Source of the DNA: Escherichia coli
Lineage (GTDB): Bacteria; Pseudomonadota; Gammaproteobacteria; Enterobacterales; Enterobacteriaceae
Strand: one strand, 5' to 3'
Assembly (NCBI RefSeq): GCF_050320075.1
Contig: NZ_CP190018.1
Length of the DNA stretch: 64,000 bases
In this document: one piece after another, positions 18,740 to 59,683 of the stretch
How the letters are laid out: every line of letters begins with the position of its first letter
Numbering within the stretch: position 1 is the first letter of the stretch
Translations under genes and position numbers: made by a program
The notes under the pieces: generated by a model
The model's database searches: none
What the model was told of the DNA's origin: nothing
Seen by the model: only the letters and a program-made list of their open reading frames with translations

Positions 18740-19333
18740 ATGAGACTGATCGTCGGGATGACAGGGGCCACCGGAGCGCCTCTTGGTGTGGCATTACTGC
18801 AAGCGCTGCGGGAGATGCCGAATGTCGAGACTCATCTGGTGATGTCGAAGTGGGCGAAAACCACCATTGAACTGGAAACGCCTTACAACGCCCGCGATGT
18901 TGCTGCCCTCGCAGACTTCTGCCATAACCCGGCGGATCAGGCCGCAACCATCTCCTCAGGTTCCTTTCGTACCGACGGCATGATCGTTATTCCGTGCAGT
19001 ATGAAAACGCTCGCCGGTATCCGTGCCGGTTACGCCGATGGCCTGGTAGGGCGCGCGGCGGACGTCGTGCTCAAAGAAGGCCGCAAACTAGTGCTGGTGC
19101 CGCGTGAAATGCCGCTTAGCACCATCCATCTCGAAAATATGCTCGCACTTTCACGCATGGGCGTGGCGATGGTGCCGCCGATGCCTGCCTTTTATAACCA
19201 TCCCGAAACGGTAGATGACATTGTCCACCACGTGGTAGCCCGCGTGCTGGATCAATTTGGCCTCGAACATCCTCACGCCAGGCGCTGGCAAGGATTGCCG
19301 CAGGCCCGGAATTTTTCTCAGGAGAATGAATAA
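18740..19333 (+). CDS. ecdB: UbiX-like flavin prenyltransferase (decarboxylase subunit B, Pad1-like)
   Basis: 197 aa, MRLIVGMTGATGAPLG flavoprotein N-terminus typical of UbiX/Pad1. Confidence 0.9.
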   Translation: MRLIVGMTGATGAPLGVALLQALREMPNVETHLVMSKWAKTTIELETPYNARDVAALADFCHNPADQAATISSGSFRTDGMIVIPCSMKTLAGIRAGYADGLVGRAADVVLKEGRKLVLVPREMPLSTIHLENMLALSRMGVAMVPPMPAFYNHPETVDDIVHHVVARVLDQFGLEHPHARRWQGLPQARNFSQENE

Positions 19334-20760
19334 TGGCATTTGATGATTTACGCAGCTTTTTACAGGCGCTTGATGACCACGGCCAGTTACTGAAAATCAG
19401 CGAAGAGGTGAACGCGGAACCGGATCTGGCAGCCGCTGCCAACGCCACCGGACGTATCGGCGATGTTGCACCGGCGCTGTGGTTTGACAATATTCGCGGC
19501 TTTATCGATGCCCGCGTGGCAATGAACACCATCGGTTCCTGGCAGAACCACGCGATTTCCCTCGGCCTGCCGCCAAACACCCCGGTTAAAAAACAGATTG
19601 ATGAGTTTATCCGCCGCTGGGATAACTTCCCCATTGCCCCGGAGCGCCGCGCCAATCCAGCCTGGGCGCAGAACACCGTCGATGGCGACGAGATCAACCT
19701 GTTCGATATTCTGCCTCTGTTTCGTTTAAACGACGGTGATGGCGGTTTCTATCTCGACAAAGCGTGCGTGGTTTCCCGCGATCCGCTTGATCCGGATAAC
19801 TTCGGCAAGCAGAACGTCGGCATCTACCGTATGGAAGTGAAGGGTAAGCGTAAGCTCGGTCTGCAACCGGTGCCGATGCACGATATCGCCCTGCATCTGC
19901 ATAAAGCGGAAGAACGCGGTGAAGATCTGCCGATTGCCATCACACTCGGTAACGATCCGATCATCACCCTGATGGGGGCCACGCCGCTGAAATATGATCA
20001 GTCCGAGTACGAAATGGCAGGCGCGCTGCGTGAAAGCCCGTACCCGATCGCCACCGCCCCGCTGACTGGTTTTGATGTGCCGTGGGGTTCAGAAGTGATC
20101 CTCGAAGGGGTCATCGAAAGCCGTAAACGCGAAATCGAAGGGCCGTTTGGTGAGTTTACCGGGCACTACTCCGGCGGGCGTAACATGACCGTGGTGCGTA
20201 TCGATAAAGTCTCTTATCGCAGCAAACCCATTTTTGAATCGCTCTATCTCGGGATGCCGTGGACGGAAATCGACTACCTGATGGGGCCAGCCACCTGCGT
20301 GCCGCTGTATCAGCAACTGAAAGCCGAGTTCCCGGAAGTGCAGGCGGTAAATGCCATGTACACCCACGGCCTGCTGGCGATTATCTCCACCAAAAAACGC
20401 TACGGTGGCTTTGCCCGCGCGGTGGGCCTGCGTGCGATGACCACGCCACACGGTCTGGGCTACGTGAAGATGGTGATTATGGTCGATGAAGACGTTGATC
20501 CGTTCAACCTGCCGCAGGTGATGTGGGCGCTCTCTTCGAAAGTGAACCCGGCAGGGGATTTGGTGCAGTTGCCGAATATGTCCGTGCTGGAACTCGACCC
20601 CGGCTCAAGCCCGGCCGGTATCACCGACAAGCTGATTATCGACGCCACCACGCCTGTCGCCCCGGACAACCGTGGTCACTACAGCCAGCCGGTGGTGGAT
20701 TTACCGGAAACCAAAGCCTGGGCTGAAAAACTGACCGCTATGCTGGCCGCACGTAAATAA
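19333..20760 (+). CDS. ecdC: UbiD-family (prFMN-dependent) aromatic acid decarboxylase subunit C
   Basis: 475 aa, UbiD-family length and motifs; start overlaps ecdB stop. Confidence 0.9.
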   Translation: MAFDDLRSFLQALDDHGQLLKISEEVNAEPDLAAAANATGRIGDVAPALWFDNIRGFIDARVAMNTIGSWQNHAISLGLPPNTPVKKQIDEFIRRWDNFPIAPERRANPAWAQNTVDGDEINLFDILPLFRLNDGDGGFYLDKACVVSRDPLDPDNFGKQNVGIYRMEVKGKRKLGLQPVPMHDIALHLHKAEERGEDLPIAITLGNDPIITLMGATPLKYDQSEYEMAGALRESPYPIATAPLTGFDVPWGSEVILEGVIESRKREIEGPFGEFTGHYSGGRNMTVVRIDKVSYRSKPIFESLYLGMPWTEIDYLMGPATCVPLYQQLKAEFPEVQAVNAMYTHGLLAIISTKKRYGGFARAVGLRAMTTPHGLGYVKMVIMVDEDVDPFNLPQVMWALSSKVNPAGDLVQLPNMSVLELDPGSSPAGITDKLIIDATTPVAPDNRGHYSQPVVDLPETKAWAEKLTAMLAARK

Positions 20761-21007: not shown

Positions 21008-21010
21008 ATA

Positions 21011-21041
21011 AAAGGTCCGATGCCCATCGGACCTTTTTATT
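21011..21041. terminator. Bidirectional terminator between convergent ecdD and ygbN
   Basis: Stem GGTCCGATG/CATCGGACC flanked by an A-run and TTTTT. Confidence 0.7.
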
Positions 21042-21045
21042 AAGG

Positions 21046-22410
21046 TCAAATTACCGCCCATACGCACCAGGTAATTAAGAATCCGGTAAAACCGAGAATG
21101 GTCGTTAACACTGTCCAGGTTTTCAGACCGTCTGCTACCGATAACCCCAGATATTTGGTCACAATCCAGAACCCTGAGTCATTAATATGTGACGCGCCAA
21201 GCCCACCAAAGCAGGCTGCCAGCGTCACCAATACGCACTGAATCGGATTCAATCCCATCACCGCTTCTGAGAGTAACCCGCCGGTTGTCAGGATTGCTAC
21301 GGTTGCTGACCCCTGCGATGCACGCAGCGCCAGTGAAATAATAAATGCGGCTGGTAACAGAGGCAGGTCAATCATTTGTAGCATGTTGGCAAGGGCTTTG
21401 CCGACGCCCGATTCCACCAGCACTTTGCCAAATACCCCTCCAGCACCAGTAACCAAAATCACTACCGCCGCGGTGGGAAGGGCTGAGCCCATAATGTCGC
21501 TGGTGTGTTGTAAGCTCCAGCCGCGACGTAAAGCCAATAACCAGAATGCCAGCACCAGCGCAATCATTAGAGCTACCATTGGTGAGCCGATCAGCTGTAG
21601 CGTACCAAGCAGGGGATGCGAAGGCGGCATCAGTGTTGCGGAAACCGTACCCGCCATGATAATCGCGATAGGAATAACAATTAGCGAGGTGACCAGCGCG
21701 ACGCCCGGTGGATTTATTTTATCGCTTAATTTTGTCGCGCCTTCCTCACTGGCCGGAGCCAGTTGCATCTGTTCCAGTACTTCCACCGACATCGCATATT
21801 GGCGCTTATTGATTATTTTCGCTGCAAAGTAGCCAACAATCCCTACGGGAATAGAAATCGCAATACCGATGATGGTTAGCCAGCCGATGTCTGCGTGGAG
21901 TAACCCCGCTGCGGCGACAGGGCCTGGATGCGGCGGTACCGCCACATGAACAGTTAGCATGATTCCAGCGACAGGCAGGCCAAATTTGAGTGGCGATATT
22001 TTGGCAACCTTGGCAAAACCGTAAATGATTGGCGCAAGAATAATAAAGCCGACATCAAAGAAGACGGGAATACCGAGGAAGAACGCTGCCAGAGTCAGCG
22101 CAGCGATAGTTCGTTTGTCACCTAACTTGCGACTGAAATAATTAGCCAGTGACTCTGCACCACCAGAGTGTTCGATCATACGCCCCAGCATAGCGCCCAG
22201 ACCAATAATAATAGTGACGGAACCAAGCACACCGCCCATCCCGGCGATCATCACTTTACCCACTTCGCCCGCCGGTATACCCGCCGCAAGTGCGACTAAC
22301 AGGCTGACGAGGAGCAGAGCAACGAATGGTTGTACCTTTGCCTTGATGACCAGCAGCAACAGCATGATTACGCCAGTTAACGCAATGCATAACAATGTAA
22401 TTGTGGACAT
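21046..22410 (-). CDS. ygbN: GntP-family permease YgbN
   Basis: 454 aa polytopic membrane protein; E. coli YgbN. Confidence 0.93.
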   Translation of the reverse strand: MSTITLLCIALTGVIMLLLLVIKAKVQPFVALLLVSLLVALAAGIPAGEVGKVMIAGMGGVLGSVTIIIGLGAMLGRMIEHSGGAESLANYFSRKLGDKRTIAALTLAAFFLGIPVFFDVGFIILAPIIYGFAKVAKISPLKFGLPVAGIMLTVHVAVPPHPGPVAAAGLLHADIGWLTIIGIAISIPVGIVGYFAAKIINKRQYAMSVEVLEQMQLAPASEEGATKLSDKINPPGVALVTSLIVIPIAIIMAGTVSATLMPPSHPLLGTLQLIGSPMVALMIALVLAFWLLALRRGWSLQHTSDIMGSALPTAAVVILVTGAGGVFGKVLVESGVGKALANMLQMIDLPLLPAAFIISLALRASQGSATVAILTTGGLLSEAVMGLNPIQCVLVTLAACFGGLGASHINDSGFWIVTKYLGLSVADGLKTWTVLTTILGFTGFLITWCVWAVI

Positions 22411-31561: not shown

Positions 31562-33640
31562 TTAAATCAATGCCGATTTATCAATTCCCAGTCGCTTCAT
31601 CCGTGACAGCAGGGTCGTGCGTTTCAGCCCCAGACGTTGCGCAGCGCCTTTAGGCCCGGCAACCACGCCGTTGGTTTCTTTCAGCACGCGAACAATCAAC
31701 TGATATTCATCTTCGCCCTCCTGGGCGACAACCGTTGCGGCAGGCGGCGTTTCAGGCTCCGGTAAAGCAATATCTGGCAGTGACAGCTGCAGCACGTTGC
31801 CGCGTGTTAGCAATACCGCGCGCTCAATGACGTTTTCCAGTTCGCGTACGTTACCCGGCCACTCCATGTTGCTCAAGGTGCGCAGCGTCTCGGCAGGAAT
31901 GCTGTCGATATTGCGCCCGAGACGACGGGCAATTTTGAAGGTAAAGGCTTTCGCCAGCAGCGGAATATCTTCCGGACGCTCGCGTAGTGGCGGCAGGTGG
32001 ATCGGGAATACATTCAGGCGGTAATAGAGATCGCTACGGAACTCACGGTCGGCGACCATTTTTTTCAGATCGCGGTTAGTCGCGGCAATTAAACGTACGT
32101 CCGTCTGAATGATTTTGTTGCTGCCGAGGCGTTCAAACTCCTGTTCCTGTAATACACGCAGCAACTTCGGCTGTAACTCCAGTGGCATATCGCCCACTTC
32201 GTCGAGGAACAGGGAGCTTTTATCCGCCAGTTCAAAACGACCAATGCGCTGGGCGCTGGCACCGGTAAAAGCCCCACGCTCATGACCAAACAGATCGCTC
32301 TCCAGCAATCCGGCAGGCATTGCCGCGCAGTTCATTTTTACCATGCGGCGATTATTACGCCCACTGAGATTATGGATCGCGCGGGCAATCAGCTCTTTAC
32401 CTGTACCAGTTTCACCGAGAATCAGCACGGTACTGTCGCTTTGCGCCACCATTTCAACTTGTTTAAGTACGCTGTACATGGCTTCGCTGCGGCCAATAAT
32501 CTCGCCAAATTCACTATCAACATTGTTGAGCTGCTCGGTCAGGGCGAGGTTTTCATCAACCAGCCGTTCTTTCAGACGATGGATTTCCTGATAGGCGAGG
32601 GCGTTATCGACAGCGATTGCCACACGTTCGGTAATCTGGCGCAGTAAATTCAGATTGGTAGTGGTAAACACTTTCTCTTCGCATTGCGCCAGTTTCAGCA
32701 CGCCCAGCATGGTGTCGCCAGACATCAGCGGTAACAGGCACAAGGTTTGAATCTGGTTGCCCCAGGTGTCGAACAACATGCGTTCATAGGGGGCTAAATC
32801 GTCCCGCTCGTGGAGATTAATCAGCAGCATCTCTTTGCTTTTGAACACGCGTTCGGTGAGGGTTCCGGCTTCATCGACTTCGCTCTGTTCGTGGGCGGGA
32901 TGCTGTTTATCAAGATAGTGAGTGGAGTAGATGTTGAGTTTGTTTTTACGGTGGCTGCGTAAGACGATGCTGATATCGTCAATGTCGAAGTAGTAATGGA
33001 TTTCTTTGGCGACTTCGCTGACCAGTTCGTCCATATCCAGGCGGGAAAGCACCGCGTTGGTAATGGCAACCAGGATGCGGAAGTTATCGCGCTCCCGGCA
33101 TAACAACTCATAGTCGACATTATTGACGACGCGGCTCTGGATTTGTTCGGTGACGACAGAAACGATCTGCGTAAATGTTTGCAGACGATTGAACTCTTTT
33201 TCGCTCCAGGGGCGATCGTCATAACGAATAAATTCACAGCCACCAAAAATATGCCCTTCCGCCGCCAGTGGCATCAGGCAATAGTGACCAAATTTGGGGT
33301 ATAGCCCACCTGCGGCCAGCTGCGGCCAGGTTTCACAAAATTCTTCGTAACTGCAATGCAGCGTATCAGGGCGCGACAAAATGCTGCGTACCGGACCGTG
33401 TGCCAGAACAGTTTCGTCTTCATATTTAATGGGGGTGTCTTTTTCACGCGATGCGTAATAAGACGCACGTTGAGTCTGCGCTTGCCACAACACAATAGCC
33501 GCGTTGTCGGCGAGCGCAGAACGCTTTACCAGTTGCGAAAGAGCCTCACACAGCGAGGCCAGATCGGGCTGCTGCAATAGTGTCCGAGTGATGTCGAACA
33601 ACCCTTGTTGTCCGAGATCACTCATCGGTGTATATGACAT
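31562..33640 (-). CDS. fhlA: Formate hydrogenlyase transcriptional activator FhlA (sigma54-dependent)
   Basis: 692 aa from MSYTPMSDLGQQ; GAF domains, AAA+ sigma54-interaction motif GETGTGKE and GAFTGA. Confidence 0.96.
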   Translation of the reverse strand: MSYTPMSDLGQQGLFDITRTLLQQPDLASLCEALSQLVKRSALADNAAIVLWQAQTQRASYYASREKDTPIKYEDETVLAHGPVRSILSRPDTLHCSYEEFCETWPQLAAGGLYPKFGHYCLMPLAAEGHIFGGCEFIRYDDRPWSEKEFNRLQTFTQIVSVVTEQIQSRVVNNVDYELLCRERDNFRILVAITNAVLSRLDMDELVSEVAKEIHYYFDIDDISIVLRSHRKNKLNIYSTHYLDKQHPAHEQSEVDEAGTLTERVFKSKEMLLINLHERDDLAPYERMLFDTWGNQIQTLCLLPLMSGDTMLGVLKLAQCEEKVFTTTNLNLLRQITERVAIAVDNALAYQEIHRLKERLVDENLALTEQLNNVDSEFGEIIGRSEAMYSVLKQVEMVAQSDSTVLILGETGTGKELIARAIHNLSGRNNRRMVKMNCAAMPAGLLESDLFGHERGAFTGASAQRIGRFELADKSSLFLDEVGDMPLELQPKLLRVLQEQEFERLGSNKIIQTDVRLIAATNRDLKKMVADREFRSDLYYRLNVFPIHLPPLRERPEDIPLLAKAFTFKIARRLGRNIDSIPAETLRTLSNMEWPGNVRELENVIERAVLLTRGNVLQLSLPDIALPEPETPPAATVVAQEGEDEYQLIVRVLKETNGVVAGPKGAAQRLGLKRTTLLSRMKRLGIDKSALI

Positions 33641-33713
33641 TTTGTTCTTCCAGGAAAGCACCGCAAAGCGGTGCAAAAGGTCATTGACTAACTATAGGAG
33701 ATTTAGAATTTTA

Positions 33714-37377: not shown

Positions 37378-37490
37378 GTGTTGATTATCCCTGCGGTGAA
37401 TAATGTCGATGATGTCGAAATGACACGTCGACACGGCGACGAAATTCATCTTTATCTTAAAAATCTGTTTCATAACAATGAATTAAAAGT

Positions 37491-38004: not shown

Positions 38005-38128
38005 GCTGAGGCTTTGCCCGTTTTGCAGGCGTTACGCCTGTTTGGGGATGGGCGTGTCGATGAGTGTCGAAAATGACATTTCATCGGCATGTTTTCGTCA
38101 AAAATGACAATCACCTGAGGAATGCCTG

Positions 38129-49268: not shown

Positions 49269-49527
49269 CGGATTTTATCCTGTTATCAGTAGGGTAGATG
49301 TAGTTGTTATCAGTCGACGTGACGGAAAAATGCCGATGCTGAAACGGAATTAGGAAACCGGTTTCACAAAATCATGAATAGTTGTCACTAAATAAGCAAG
49401 AGAGTTAATTGTTCATTTTTTATATTTGTGAAACCGGTCACCTGAATATTTTTCCCGCCGATTGCGCAAGGACAATCGGCAAACGGTGCAGTACACTGCG
49501 TTGATTGCGTGTAAAGGGATGAAAATG

Positions 49528-50538
49528 ATGACGACGATGCTGGAAGTGGCGAAGCGCGCCGGGGTTTCAAAAGCGACCGTTTCCCGCGTGCTTTCAGGTA
49601 ATGGCTACGTCAGCCAGGAGACTAAAGATCGCGTGTTTCAGGCGGTAGAAGAGAGCGGTTACCGCCCAAACTTGCTGGCGCGCAATCTGTCGGCGAAGAG
49701 TACTCAGACGCTGGGGCTGGTCGTGACCAACACGCTTTACCACGGCATTTATTTTAGTGAATTACTCTTTCATGCCGCGCGAATGGCGGAAGAGAAAGGG
49801 CGACAGTTGCTATTGGCAGATGGTAAACACAGCGCCGAAGAAGAGCGCCAGGCGATTCAGTATCTGCTGGATTTGCGCTGCGACGCCATTATGATTTACC
49901 CGCGTTTTTTAAGCGTGGATGAGATTGATGACATCATTGACGCACACAGTCAGCCGATAATGGTGCTTAATCGCCGCCTGCGCAAAAACAGCAGCCATAG
50001 CGTCTGGTGCGATCATAAACAGACCAGCTTTAACGCCGTGGCAGAGTTGATAAACGCCGGACATCAGGAGATTGCTTTCCTTACCGGCTCGATGGATTCT
50101 CCCACCAGCATTGAACGTCTTGCCGGGTATAAAGACGCGCTGGCGCAGCATAGTATTGCGCTCAATGAAAAACTTATCGCTAACGGTAAATGGACGCCTG
50201 CCAGCGGGGCCGAAGGGGTAGAAACGTTGCTCGAACGTGGGGCTAAATTTAGCGCGTTAGTTGCCAGTAACGACGATATGGCGATAGGTGCGATGAAAGC
50301 GTTACACGAGCGCGGCGTAGCGGTGCCAGAGCAGGTGTCAGTTATCGGATTCGATGATATCGCCATTGCCCCCTATATCGTTCCGGCGCTCTCCAGCGTA
50401 AAAATTCCGGTGACTGAGATGATTCAGGAAATTATTGGACGGCTGATTTTTATGCTCGATGGTGGGGATTTCTCACCGCCGAAAACCTTCAGCGGAAAAC
50501 TGATCCGCCGCGGCTCCCTCATTGCTCTTTCGCAATAA
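49528..50538 (+). CDS. ascG: LacI-family repressor AscG
   Basis: 336 aa from MTTMLEVAKRAGVSKATVSRVL; ORF-track start 49462 judged an extension. Confidence 0.92.
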   Translation: MTTMLEVAKRAGVSKATVSRVLSGNGYVSQETKDRVFQAVEESGYRPNLLARNLSAKSTQTLGLVVTNTLYHGIYFSELLFHAARMAEEKGRQLLLADGKHSAEEERQAIQYLLDLRCDAIMIYPRFLSVDEIDDIIDAHSQPIMVLNRRLRKNSSHSVWCDHKQTSFNAVAELINAGHQEIAFLTGSMDSPTSIERLAGYKDALAQHSIALNEKLIANGKWTPASGAEGVETLLERGAKFSALVASNDDMAIGAMKALHERGVAVPEQVSVIGFDDIAIAPYIVPALSSVKIPVTEMIQEIIGRLIFMLDGGDFSPPKTFSGKLIRRGSLIALSQ

Positions 50539-50551
50539 ACATTGTCATCAC

Positions 50552-50585
50552 ATGTCATCGTCACTAGTGTCGATGACATCGTTTT
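50552..50585. terminator. Near-perfect 28-bp palindrome plus T-run downstream of ascG (probable intrinsic terminator)
   Basis: ATGTCATCGTCACTAGTGTCGATGACAT (13 of 14 positions complementary) followed by CGTTTTT; begins 14 nt after ascG stop. Confidence 0.55.
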
Positions 50586-50686
50586 TCCTGCATTACAGAA
50601 TTTAATTTCTTTAAATAACAGTAAATTAAAAACTGGCATGATTTGTGAATGTATCGGCGCATTAACTGTCATTGCTGGAGAATTTG

Positions 50687-51214
50687 ATGAACCGTTTCAT
50701 CATTGCTGACGCGAGTAAATGTATTGGTTGCCGTACCTGTGAAGTGGCGTGCGTGGTTTCTCATCAGGAGAATCAGGACTGTGCATCGCTGACCCCGGAA
50801 ACTTTTTTACCGCGAATCCATGTCATTAAAGGTGTGAACATTTCTACGGCAACAGTCTGCCGTCAGTGTGAAGATGCACCGTGCGCTAACGTCTGCCCAA
50901 ATGGTGCTATCAGCCGTGATAAAGGGTTTGTTCATGTGATGCAGGAACGTTGCATTGGTTGCAAAACCTGCGTTGTGGCTTGCCCGTATGGCGCGATGGA
51001 AGTGGTGGTACGTCCGGTGATTCGCAACAGCGGCGCAGGGCTGAATGTACGGGCTGACAAAGCCGAAGCCAATAAATGCGACCTCTGTAACCATCGTGAA
51101 GACGGCCCGGCGTGTATGGCGGCTTGCCCGACCCATGCGCTGATTTGTGTCGATCGTAATAAACTTGAACAACTGAGCGCAGAAAAACGCCGCCGTACGG
51201 CGCTGATGTTCTAA
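50687..51214 (+). CDS. hydN: Electron-transport ferredoxin-like protein HydN
   Basis: 175 aa from [22 protein letters not shown]; multiple 4Fe-4S motifs. Confidence 0.95.
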
Positions 51215-51366
51215 AAATCTTACAGAACTGTTCTGGCATCAAAGGAATTCCCGGAAATATTCGTAGAATACGGAGCGGGCGGTATCGCCGACCTGTGATT
51301 GCCGGATACGACGCTGTCGTGTCCGGCAGGGCGGGTTACGCAATTCATGATGGCGGGAATAACTCA

Positions 51367-53607
51367 ATGGCAAAAAACACATCTTGCGGTGTCCAACTGC
51401 GTATTCGTGGCAAAGTGCAGGGCGTCGGTTTTCGTCCGTTTGTCTGGCAGCTGGCACAGCAATTAAATCTTCACGGCGATGTCTGTAATGACGGCGATGG
51501 CGTAGAAGTCCGGCTGCTGGAAGACCCGGAAACGTTTCTTGTGCAGTTGCATCAGCACTGCCCGCCGCTGGCGCGTATTGATAGCGTCGAGCGTGAGCCG
51601 TTTATCTGGTCACAACTGCCCACCGAGTTCACTATACGCCAGAGCACAGGCGGCACCATGAATACGCAAATTGTTCCCGATGCCGCTACTTGCCCTGCCT
51701 GTCTTGCCGAAATGAATACCCCAGGCGAGCGGCGTTATCGTTATCCGTTTATCAACTGTACTCACTGTGGCCCGCGTTTCACCATTATTCGCGCCATGCC
51801 TTACGACCGCCCGTTTACCGTGATGGCGGCGTTTCCGTTGTGTCCGGCTTGTGACAAAGAGTACCGCGACCCGCTCGATCGTCGCTTCCACGCCCAGCCG
51901 GTGGCCTGCCCGGAGTGTGGCCCACATCTTGAATGGGTAAGTCATGGTGAACATGCGGAACAAGAGGCGGCATTACAGGCAGCTATCGCACAGTTAAAAA
52001 TGGGCAACATTGTCGCCATCAAAGGGATTGGCGGATTTCATCTTGCCTGCGATGCACGTAACAGTAACGCGGTGGCGACACTTCGGGCGCGCAAACATCG
52101 CCCGGCGAAACCGCTGGCGGTCATGTTGCCAGTGGCAGAAGGTTTACCAGACGCTGCGCGCCAGTTGCTCACCACACCCGCCGCGCCGATTGTGCTGGTG
52201 GATAAAAAATACGTTCCTGAGCTTTGTGATGATATCGCCCCTGGCCTTAACGAAGTTGGGGTGATGTTGCCTGCGAATCCGCTTCAGCATTTGCTGTTAC
52301 AGGAACTGCAATGTCCGCTGGTGATGACCTCCGGCAACCTGAGCGGTAAACCACCGGCTATCAGCAACGAACAGGCGCTGGCGGATTTGCAGGGCATTGC
52401 CGACGGATTCTTGCTACATAACCGCGACATCGTGCAGCGGATGGATGATTCGGTGGTGCGCGAAAGCGGCGAAATGCTGCGCCGTTCGCGGGGGTATGTG
52501 CCGGATGCGCTGGCTTTGCCTCCGGGCTTTAAAAATGTTCCGCCTGTGCTGTGTCTCGGCGCGGATCTGAAAAACACCTTCTGCCTGGTGCGCGGTGAAC
52601 AAGCGGTGTTGAGTCAGCATCTGGGCGATTTAAGTGACGATGGCATCCAGATGCAGTGGCGCGAAGCGTTACGCCTGATGCAAAACATCTACGATTTCAC
52701 TCCGCAATACGTTGTGCATGACGCGCATCCGGGCTATGTCTCCAGCCAGTGGGCACGCGAAATGAATCTGCCGACGCAAACGGTGCTGCATCATCATGCT
52801 CATGCGGCGGCGAGTCTGGCAGAGCATCAGTGGCCGCTGGATGGCGGTGATGTCATTGCGTTGACGCTCGACGGTATCGGTATGGGGGAGAACGGCGCTT
52901 TGTGGGGCGGCGAATGCCTGCGGGTGAACTATCGCGAATGTGAGCACCTGGGCGGCTTGCCTGCGGTGGCGCTTCCGGGGGGCGATTTGGCTGCAAAGCA
53001 GCCGTGGCGTAACCTGCTGGCGCAGTGCCTGCGCTTTGTGCCGGAGTGGCAGAATTACCCTGAAACGACAAGTGTGCAACAGCAAAACTGGAGCGTGCTG
53101 GCGCGGGCCATTGAGCGTGGAATTAACGCGCCGCTGGCGTCATCGTGTGGGCGTTTGTTCGATGCTGTGGCGGCGGCACTGGGCTGTGCGCCAGCCACGT
53201 TAAGTTATGAAGGTGAAGCGGCTTGTGCTCTGGAGGCGCTCGCAGCCTCATGCGACGGAGTGACGCATCCGGTGACGATGCCGCTGGTGGACAATCAACT
53301 GGATCTCGCCACTTTCTGGCAGCAGTGGCTGAACTGGCAGGCACCGGTTAATCAACGCGCGTGGGCGTTTCATGATGCGCTGGCGCAGGGTTTTGCCGCG
53401 TTGATGCGTGAGCAGGCCACGATGCGCGGTATCACTACGCTGGTATTTAGCGGTGGGGTTATTCATAACCGATTGCTGCGTACACGCCTGGCGCATTATC
53501 TCGCTGATTTCACATTACTCTTTCCGCAGAGTTTACCGGCGGGTGATGGCGGCTTGTCTCTGGGGCAGGGGGTTATTGCTGCGGCGCGCATCCTGCATGC
53601 TGCATAG
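51367..53607 (+). CDS. hypF: Carbamoyltransferase HypF
   Basis: 750 aa from [24 protein letters not shown]; acylphosphatase, Zn-finger CxxC pairs, YrdC and Kae1-like domains. Confidence 0.96.
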
Positions 53608-58917: not shown

Positions 58918-59683
58918 TGCTCTCTCCGGTTATGATCACATCGATCCCTTTCTTTTCCAGCGCCTGACGAAACGCCGGATCGATACCTGCGTCGGTAATT
59001 AGCTTATCGACGCTTTCAAGACTGCAAACTACGTTGGGGCTTTTACGGCCAAACTTTGATGAGTCTGCCATCAAAATCACTTCGCGCGCGGCATTGCACA
59101 TTGCCTTACTGACGGTATAAACCTCGTTGAACGTGGTTACGCCCGCATTGAGATCGATGCCGTCGGTGCCCATAAACAATTTATCGAAGGTGAAATGCTC
59201 GAAGGCATTCTCTGCCAGTTGCCCGTGAAATGAGGCCGATTTTTTACGAAATGTTCCGCCTGGCATCAGGATAGTTTGTTCGTTATCCAGTTCGGATAGC
59301 GCATTGACGATATGCAGGCTGTTGGTCATCACTGTGATGTTATTAAAGCGCGAGAGCAGGGGAACCATCTGCAAAACGGTACTGCCAGCATCAAGAATGA
59401 TCGAATCGCCATCATGGATAAAACTAACGGCAGCTTCTGCAATCAGCTCTTTCTTGTGGGTGTTGATGAGAGTTTTATGATCGATAGGCGGATCGGATTC
59501 CTCTTTATTCAACACCACTCCGCCATAAGTACGAATGACGGTTCCGGCATGTTCCAGAATGACCAGATCTTTGCGGATGGTTGTGCCTGTGGTGTCAAAG
59601 TATTGCGCCAATTCTTCAACCGAGCATTTACCCTGCTTTTGCAGATACTCCAGAATGGCGGCCTGACGCTGACGAGGTTTCAT
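58910..59683 (-). CDS. srlR: Glucitol operon repressor SrlR (DeoR family)
   Basis: 257 aa. Confidence 0.95.

Follow-up and report, generated by a model that had tools for sequence, protein, structure and literature searches.

The spacer between ascG and hydN in Escherichia coli carries a near-perfect palindrome of 28 bp followed by a run of T residues, which raises the question of whether the palindrome ends the transcripts of ascG as an intrinsic terminator or serves as the binding site of a regulator of the hydN-hypF operon. We analyzed it within a stretch of 64,000 nucleotides (64 kb) of E. coli DNA, referred to here as the window. A preliminary description of this DNA had preferred the first reading and named the second as an alternative. 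Our analysis now ranks the second first, on the basis of the conservation of the palindrome arms, their helical phase with a mapped promoter, and motifs shared within the formate regulon. The palindrome, together with a TGTCATC copy upstream of it, is very probably the enhancer (upstream activating site [UAS]) through which FhlA activates the sigma-54 promoter of hydN-hypF. The following genes surround the element or encode the factor proposed to act on it.

49528 to 50538, plus strand: ascG, LacI-family repressor (annotation; LacI and Peripla_BP domains)
50687 to 51214, plus strand: hydN, 4Fe-4S ferredoxin-like protein, first gene of the operon (annotation; Fer4 Pfam domains)
51367 to 53607, plus strand: hypF, carbamoyltransferase, second gene of the operon (annotation; HypF domains)
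31562 to 33676, minus strand: fhlA open reading frame (ORF), proposed trans-acting factor (Pfam GAF, Sigma54_activat [sigma-54 AAA+], and HTH_8 [Fis-type helix-turn-helix {HTH}] domains)

The labels ascG and hydN, which the preliminary description had assigned, were borne out by 100% identity of positions 49400 to 51300 to annotated E. coli genomes and by agreement of the Pfam domains. The spacer differed from that of K-12 MG1655 at 3 of 161 aligned positions, none of them in the palindrome or the promoter, so that the K-12 literature applies directly. The palindrome and its surroundings are composed as follows.

50552 to 50579, no strand assigned: 28-bp dyad, proposed core of the FhlA enhancer (palindrome beyond chance, cross-genus conservation, and motifs shared with hyc/hyp)
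50553 to 50563: left arm of the dyad, TGTCATCGTCA
50564 to 50567: variable centre of the dyad, CTAG
50568 to 50578: right arm of the dyad, TGTCGATGACA
50543 to 50549, plus strand: third TGTCATC copy, putative auxiliary half-site (position, and a weaker conserved block in relatives)
50582 to 50586, plus strand: T5 run 3' of the palindrome, possible U-tract for an ascG terminator (lineage specific)

The 28-bp dyad, ATGTCATCGTCACTAGTGTCGATGACAT, has 13 of its 14 positions paired, as described earlier. A repeat finder reported its two halves (50552-50565 and 50566-50579) as abutting arms with zero spacer and 93% complementarity, and comparison of the palindrome with its own reverse complement gave two symmetric differences, which amount to one T/T pair. 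TGTCATC occurs at 50543-50549 and 50553-50559 on the plus strand and at 50572-50578 on the minus strand; the latter two form the arms of the palindrome, and the first is the sole copy outside the dyad. The starts of the two direct copies (50543 and 50553) are 10 bp apart, that is, one helical turn. The extra copy and the T run had both been pointed out in the preliminary description, and both are indeed present.

Downstream of the palindrome lies the promoter of the operon, with an A/T-rich stretch in between.

50633 to 50649, plus strand: sigma-54 (-24/-12) promoter CTGGCATGATTTGTGAA of hydN-hypF (matches a published ChIP-seq site)
50616 to 50628, plus strand: putative IHF-like A/T-rich element TAACAGTAAATTA, between the enhancer and the promoter

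CTGGCATGATTTGTGAA is the identical 17-mer to the sigma-54 ChIP-seq site OS26, which Bonocora et al. ascribed to hydN in 2015 (PMC4591121), and the hydN-ascG spacer also contains a gSELEX peak of the RpoN holoenzyme (PMC8743547). The dependence of hydN-hypF on FhlA, formate, and sigma-54 is reported in the literature: PMC11841067 places the operon in the formate regulon, with its expression raised by formate-FhlA, and for Salmonella PMC4987338 and PMC3844500 describe hydN-hypF as FhlA and sigma-54 dependent, with 13-fold sigma-54-dependent expression.

The palindrome is located upstream of this promoter, and its centre (50565/50566) is separated by 69 bp from the GG of CTGGCATGATTTGTGAA. With the second G of this GG (50636) taken as position -24, we infer that transcription of hydN starts near 50660, which would put the centre of the palindrome at about -95. 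Bacterial enhancers are usually found around -95, and the dyad falls within the range expected of an enhancer, roughly 80 to 150 bp upstream of a genuine -24/-12 promoter. Apart from this, a promoter consensus scan gave a sigma-70-like match at 50573-50601, which is at chance level and was rejected.

Conservation across the Enterobacteriaceae had been suggested as a check in the preliminary description, and it proved to be strong. By scanning for HydN in one genome per species, we obtained 80 loci, which represent about 20 genera of enterobacteria (Escherichia, Salmonella, Citrobacter, Klebsiella, Raoultella, Enterobacter, Kluyvera, Kosakonia, Lelliottia, Trabulsiella, Cedecea, and others), and their upstream regions were lined up. 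The pattern TGTCATCGWCA-N4-TGWCGATGACA was present in 79 of the 80 loci, with nearly all arm positions carrying about 2 bits, and 50 loci had perfect arms of 11 + 11 nucleotides. The central 4 nucleotides, on the other side of the scale, appeared as 19 different tetranucleotides, and on the 3' flank of the dyad the information fell at once to about 0.1 bit. A single arm position varied among T/A, T/T, and A/T states, with too few independent events to separate pairing in a hairpin from a tolerated W. Besides the dyad, a second and weaker conserved block (1.0 to 1.8 bits; consensus GTCGTCA, with the variants GTCGACA and TTGTCAT) was found 16 to 21 nucleotides upstream of the dyad centre, and it corresponds to the extra TGTCATC at 50543-50549. 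The gene upstream was ascG in most loci and hycI in Salmonella and Cedecea, where the dyad was retained too.

The distance from the dyad to the GG of the -24 element was bimodal among the 80 loci, with 50 loci at 68 to 71 bp, 30 loci at 58 to 61 bp, and no values between. The two classes are one helical turn (10 bp) apart, which indicates that the face of the helix is conserved. TGGCAC-type -24 motifs were conserved across the related loci. The alignment also contained conserved columns at the IHF-like element: 62 of 81 sequences had WAWCAR-N4-WTR at a constant distance from the promoter (-18 from TGGCA), and in 18 of 81 the match was to the strict IHF consensus, WATCAR-N4-TTR.

Two minor features of these promoters may be recorded here. 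The -12 element of the hydN loci reads TGAA, TGCA, or TGTA, not the canonical TTGC, and in several Klebsiella and Raoultella loci TGGAAC replaces TGGCAC at -24. Separately, in loci L002, L006, L008, L014, and L030 (some Escherichia, Citrobacter, and Intestinirhabdus), the nearest recognizable upstream gene was hycI at a distance of 0.7 to 1.15 kb, and the final 3' bases of ascG and the dyad were still present, which suggests that part of the asc locus was deleted and the control region of hydN was left intact.

Metagenome contigs gave a similar picture. Among 120 exact matches to the dyad, 93 were situated 110 to 125 bp upstream of a hydN homologue, and 2 more were cut by contig ends. Of the remaining 25 matches, 23 lay inside stop-free frames of at least 125 amino acids on unrelated contigs. 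The exact dyad was found in no other promoter context among the metagenome matches, and none of the 25 non-hydN matches had a convincing sigma-54 promoter nearby.

The proposed assignment to FhlA draws further on comparison with other control regions of the formate regulon, two of which lie in the same window.

37400 to 37450, no strand assigned: hypA-hycA intergenic region, for comparison; contains TGTCGATGA-TGTCGAAATGACA-CGTCGACA
38050 to 38112, no strand assigned: hycA-hycB intergenic element, for comparison; TGTCGATGAG-TGTCGAAAATGACA ... CGTCAAAAATGACA

Five copies of the 9-mer TGTCGATGA, which corresponds to the right arm of the hydN dyad, are present in the window where 0.63 would be expected, and three of the five are in spacers adjoining formate-regulon promoters (ascG-hydN, hypA-hycA, and hycA-hycB). 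When YGTCR/YGACR pentamers were counted in sliding 45-nucleotide windows, these three spacers were among the four densest places in the 64 kb, and the hypA-hycA region, whose spacer is flanked by the sigma-54 sites OS27 and OS28 (PMC4591121), was the densest of all. The hypA-hycA and hycA-hycB spacers both contain TGTCGATGA(G)TGTCGAAA(A)TGACA. As a side observation, the hycA-hycB element TGTCGATGAGTGTCGAAAATGACA ... CGTCAAAAATGACA is a near-duplicate of the hypA-hycA element at 37400-37450.

An inner core, CGWCA-N4-TGWCG, is shared more widely. In hydN it takes the form CGTCA-CTAG-TGTCG; the K-12 fdhF upstream region has CGTCA-AAAC-TGACG, plus three TTTCGT(CA) repeats, and the K-12 hyfA upstream region has CGACA-CGGG-TGTCG, with about 110 bp between it and the GG of the hyfA sigma-54 promoter (L084, 180-205). 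Exact matches to the core numbered two in the window against 0.39 expected. With one mismatch allowed, CGTCA-N4-TGACG occurred 13 times against 2.5 expected, and it was overrepresented across coding DNA; the sharing of short motifs alone is therefore weak evidence. The exact 24-bp pattern was confined to hydN and absent from the other promoters of the regulon. The second exact match to the inner core, CGACATTATTGACG, is found on the minus strand inside the fhlA ORF, and together with the nearby GGTGACGACAG it makes up the second-densest YGTCR/YGACR cluster of the window (33111-33155). This cluster could be due to chance or could be an internal FhlA-like site within fhlA.

We also compared these regions with the 16-bp FhlA consensus, CATTTCGTACGAAATG, as quoted in PMC4987338. 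Its best match in the hydN spacer had 7 mismatches, and its best match at the palindrome had 8; the hyc, hycA-B, and fdhF regions, with 5 to 7 mismatches, were fitted poorly too, so that the test is uninformative for the hydN dyad. A search of the window for this consensus with up to 3 mismatches returned a single match, at 59238, which is unrelated and at chance level. A full-text literature search for the palindrome sequence found no paper, and only the consensus 16-mer was quoted.

How such an enhancer would work can be outlined by a model. FhlA, an enhancer-binding protein that responds to formate and whose gene lies in the same window, would bind both 11-bp arms (TGTCATCGWCA when read outward-in on either strand) with its C-terminal Fis-type HTH domains, and the extra half-site one turn upstream would aid assembly of the active FhlA oligomer. 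The A/T-rich, IHF-like spacer would then bend the DNA so that FhlA could touch the closed complex of the sigma-54 holoenzyme at CTGGCATGATTTGTGAA, and formate-stimulated ATP hydrolysis by FhlA would open the promoter, leading to expression of hydN-hypF. In this model, the contact of FhlA with precisely these bases, the contribution of the third half-site, and the involvement of IHF are our inference. As a side effect in Escherichia, transcripts of ascG that run into the dyad could form a hairpin with a U-run behind it, and some of them might terminate there.

We consider it highly likely that the hydN dyad belongs with the FhlA UASs of the formate regulon, as a compact, nested-dyad variant of an apparently loosely defined motif. 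Like the UASs of hyc, hyp, and fdhF, it sits upstream of a sigma-54 promoter (by about 95 bp) in an operon reported to depend on FhlA and formate, and it is built of TGTC/GACA-type units; TGTCGATGA is common to both hyc-region elements, and CGWCA-N4-TGWCG is common to the hydN, fdhF, and hyf upstream regions. It differs from the hyc elements, which consist of direct repeats spaced by A-tracts (TGTCGAAATGACA), in being one compact, near-perfect 28-bp dyad of nested inverted repeats, and it departs from the quoted FhlA consensus by the 8 mismatches given above. NtrC-type enhancers, such as that of glnAp2, have their dyad sites in pairs, in phase with a sigma-54 promoter. The hydN element resembles them in having a dyad upstream of a -24/-12 promoter, in its reliance on the helical face, and in the proposed formation of an oligomer from more than one site; it is unlike them in the protein and recognition sequence, in the signal (formate as opposed to phosphorylation), and in having one full dyad plus one extra half-site instead of two full dyads.

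Reports of FhlA and sigma-54 control of hydN-hypF date back to the 1990s, and the palindrome occupies the place at which such control would call for an enhancer. The primary papers and RegulonDB presumably already describe an activating site upstream of hydN. The control circuit is already known, and the finding adds little new biology. Its value lies in annotation, where the label of the element ought to be that of a binding site for a regulatory protein and not just that of the ascG terminator. Besides, the cross-genus footprint describes the site more cleanly, and in a form open to testing, by its arms, variable centre, auxiliary half-site, and one-turn phasing; this description could help to refine the loosely defined FhlA motif and may aid the engineering of formate-responsive promoters.

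The explanation that competes best with an enhancer acting alone is one in which the 28 bp serve twice, as a conserved enhancer and, through a T-run acquired in Escherichia and perhaps Salmonella, as a partial terminator that insulates hydN-hypF. All evidence for the enhancer applies to it equally. Moreover, the stop codon of ascG is at 50536-50538, with 13 nucleotides from it to the palindrome, so that ascG transcripts would enter the dyad, and their RNA is predicted to form a hairpin of 12 to 14 bp (-13.6 kcal/mol; z = -3.2) that is directly followed by UUUU(U)CC. The T-run is lineage restricted; most Escherichia loci retain it, as do two Salmonella loci. The hairpin is, however, only modestly stable, and it contains a T/T (U-U) mismatch that most other genera lack. 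We regard this double function as a real possibility that nevertheless falls short of being probable; in Escherichia, the transcribed hairpin and U-run may weakly terminate ascG transcripts, as a predicted side effect. A more speculative pair of proposals is that the 28 bp act both as FhlA enhancer in DNA and, in Escherichia and Salmonella, as a terminator in RNA that shields the operon from transcription running on from ascG or hyc, or else that the hydN dyad displays the core of FhlA recognition, TGTCATCGWCA with the inner CGWCA-N4-TGWCG, more sharply than the 16-bp consensus does. We put this pair forward tentatively and consider it doubtful.

That the palindrome is primarily a Rho-independent terminator of ascG, with RNA polymerase released about 45 to 50 nucleotides past the ascG stop codon, is unlikely. 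This reading was the one preferred in the preliminary description, and part of it stands: in E. coli, ascG ends shortly upstream on the same strand, and a hairpin followed by a U-run is present, as in intrinsic terminators. It hardly stands as the main role. A conserved terminator would keep its hairpin and U-tract together and show covariation in the stem, whereas a T-run of at least 4 within 10 nucleotides 3' of the dyad occurred in only 15 of the 80 loci and was missing in 65, most of them with ascG upstream, while the stem was invariant in sequence, not merely in pairing, its loop varied, its 3' flank was unconserved, and the element survived where ascG is not the neighboring gene. The base of the stem is also A/U rich, unlike that of intrinsic terminators. 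A scan with simple terminator consensus rules called no terminator at the element, probably because, given the internal U-U mismatch, the perfect stem that remains encloses a loop too large for these rules, and Rfam covariance models gave no match with an E value of 1 or lower in 50300-50900. The 3' ends of ascG and hydN were absent from the Term-seq supplementary tables examined, which weighs little, as ascG is poorly expressed and the tables may be incomplete. An invariant stem with a free loop, an unconserved U-tract, independence of the upstream gene, and a conserved helical face fit a protein-binding enhancer and not an RNA terminator; judged by the aligned loci, termination cannot be the conserved function of the element.

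If the dyad is a binding site, it might be bound by a regulator other than FhlA, either its paralogue HyfR or some dimeric factor. The CGACA-N4-TGTCG core upstream of hyfA, whose operon encodes HyfR, is in keeping with this, and the dyad matches the published FhlA consensus so poorly that there is room for it. The literature, however, credits FhlA with the activation of hydN-hypF, in PMC11841067, PMC4987338, and PMC3844500; the motifs of the hydN dyad recur in the hyc and hyp regions; and the dyad is conserved in Salmonella, where a review of bacterial enhancer-binding proteins assigns hydN-hypF to FhlA (PMC4987338). We therefore consider another regulator very improbable and retain FhlA as the proposed activator.

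An origin by chance or as one copy of a dispersed repeat (REP/BIME- or MITE-like), for which the palindromic shape and nothing else speaks, is refuted, since the dyad is single in the window, holds an orthologous position across genera, and belongs to a class of palindromes (zero spacer, 14-nucleotide arms, at most one mismatch) of which only 0.01 would be expected per 64 kb by calculation, with a mean of 0.05 in 60 first-order Markov simulations. The palindrome at 50552-50579 is real, and a chance origin is excluded. Likewise, 5425 of 5426 complete E. coli genomes had the ascG-hydN spacer as a single copy (median, one place); one genome had two copies, and one of the 5426 matching places was on a plasmid-typed record.

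Two zero-spacer 14 + 14 palindromes were observed in the 64-kb window, and the only one besides the hydN dyad, AAAAGGTCCGATGCCCATCGGACCTTTT, is at 21010-21037. It has a GC-rich stem between A4 and T4 and sits between the convergent ORFs at 19333-20760 (plus strand) and 21046-22410 (minus strand). It looks like a bidirectional intrinsic terminator of textbook-like form, in contrast to the hydN dyad, in which conservation concerns the sequence of the stem and not its pairing, and whose U-run is missing from most relatives.
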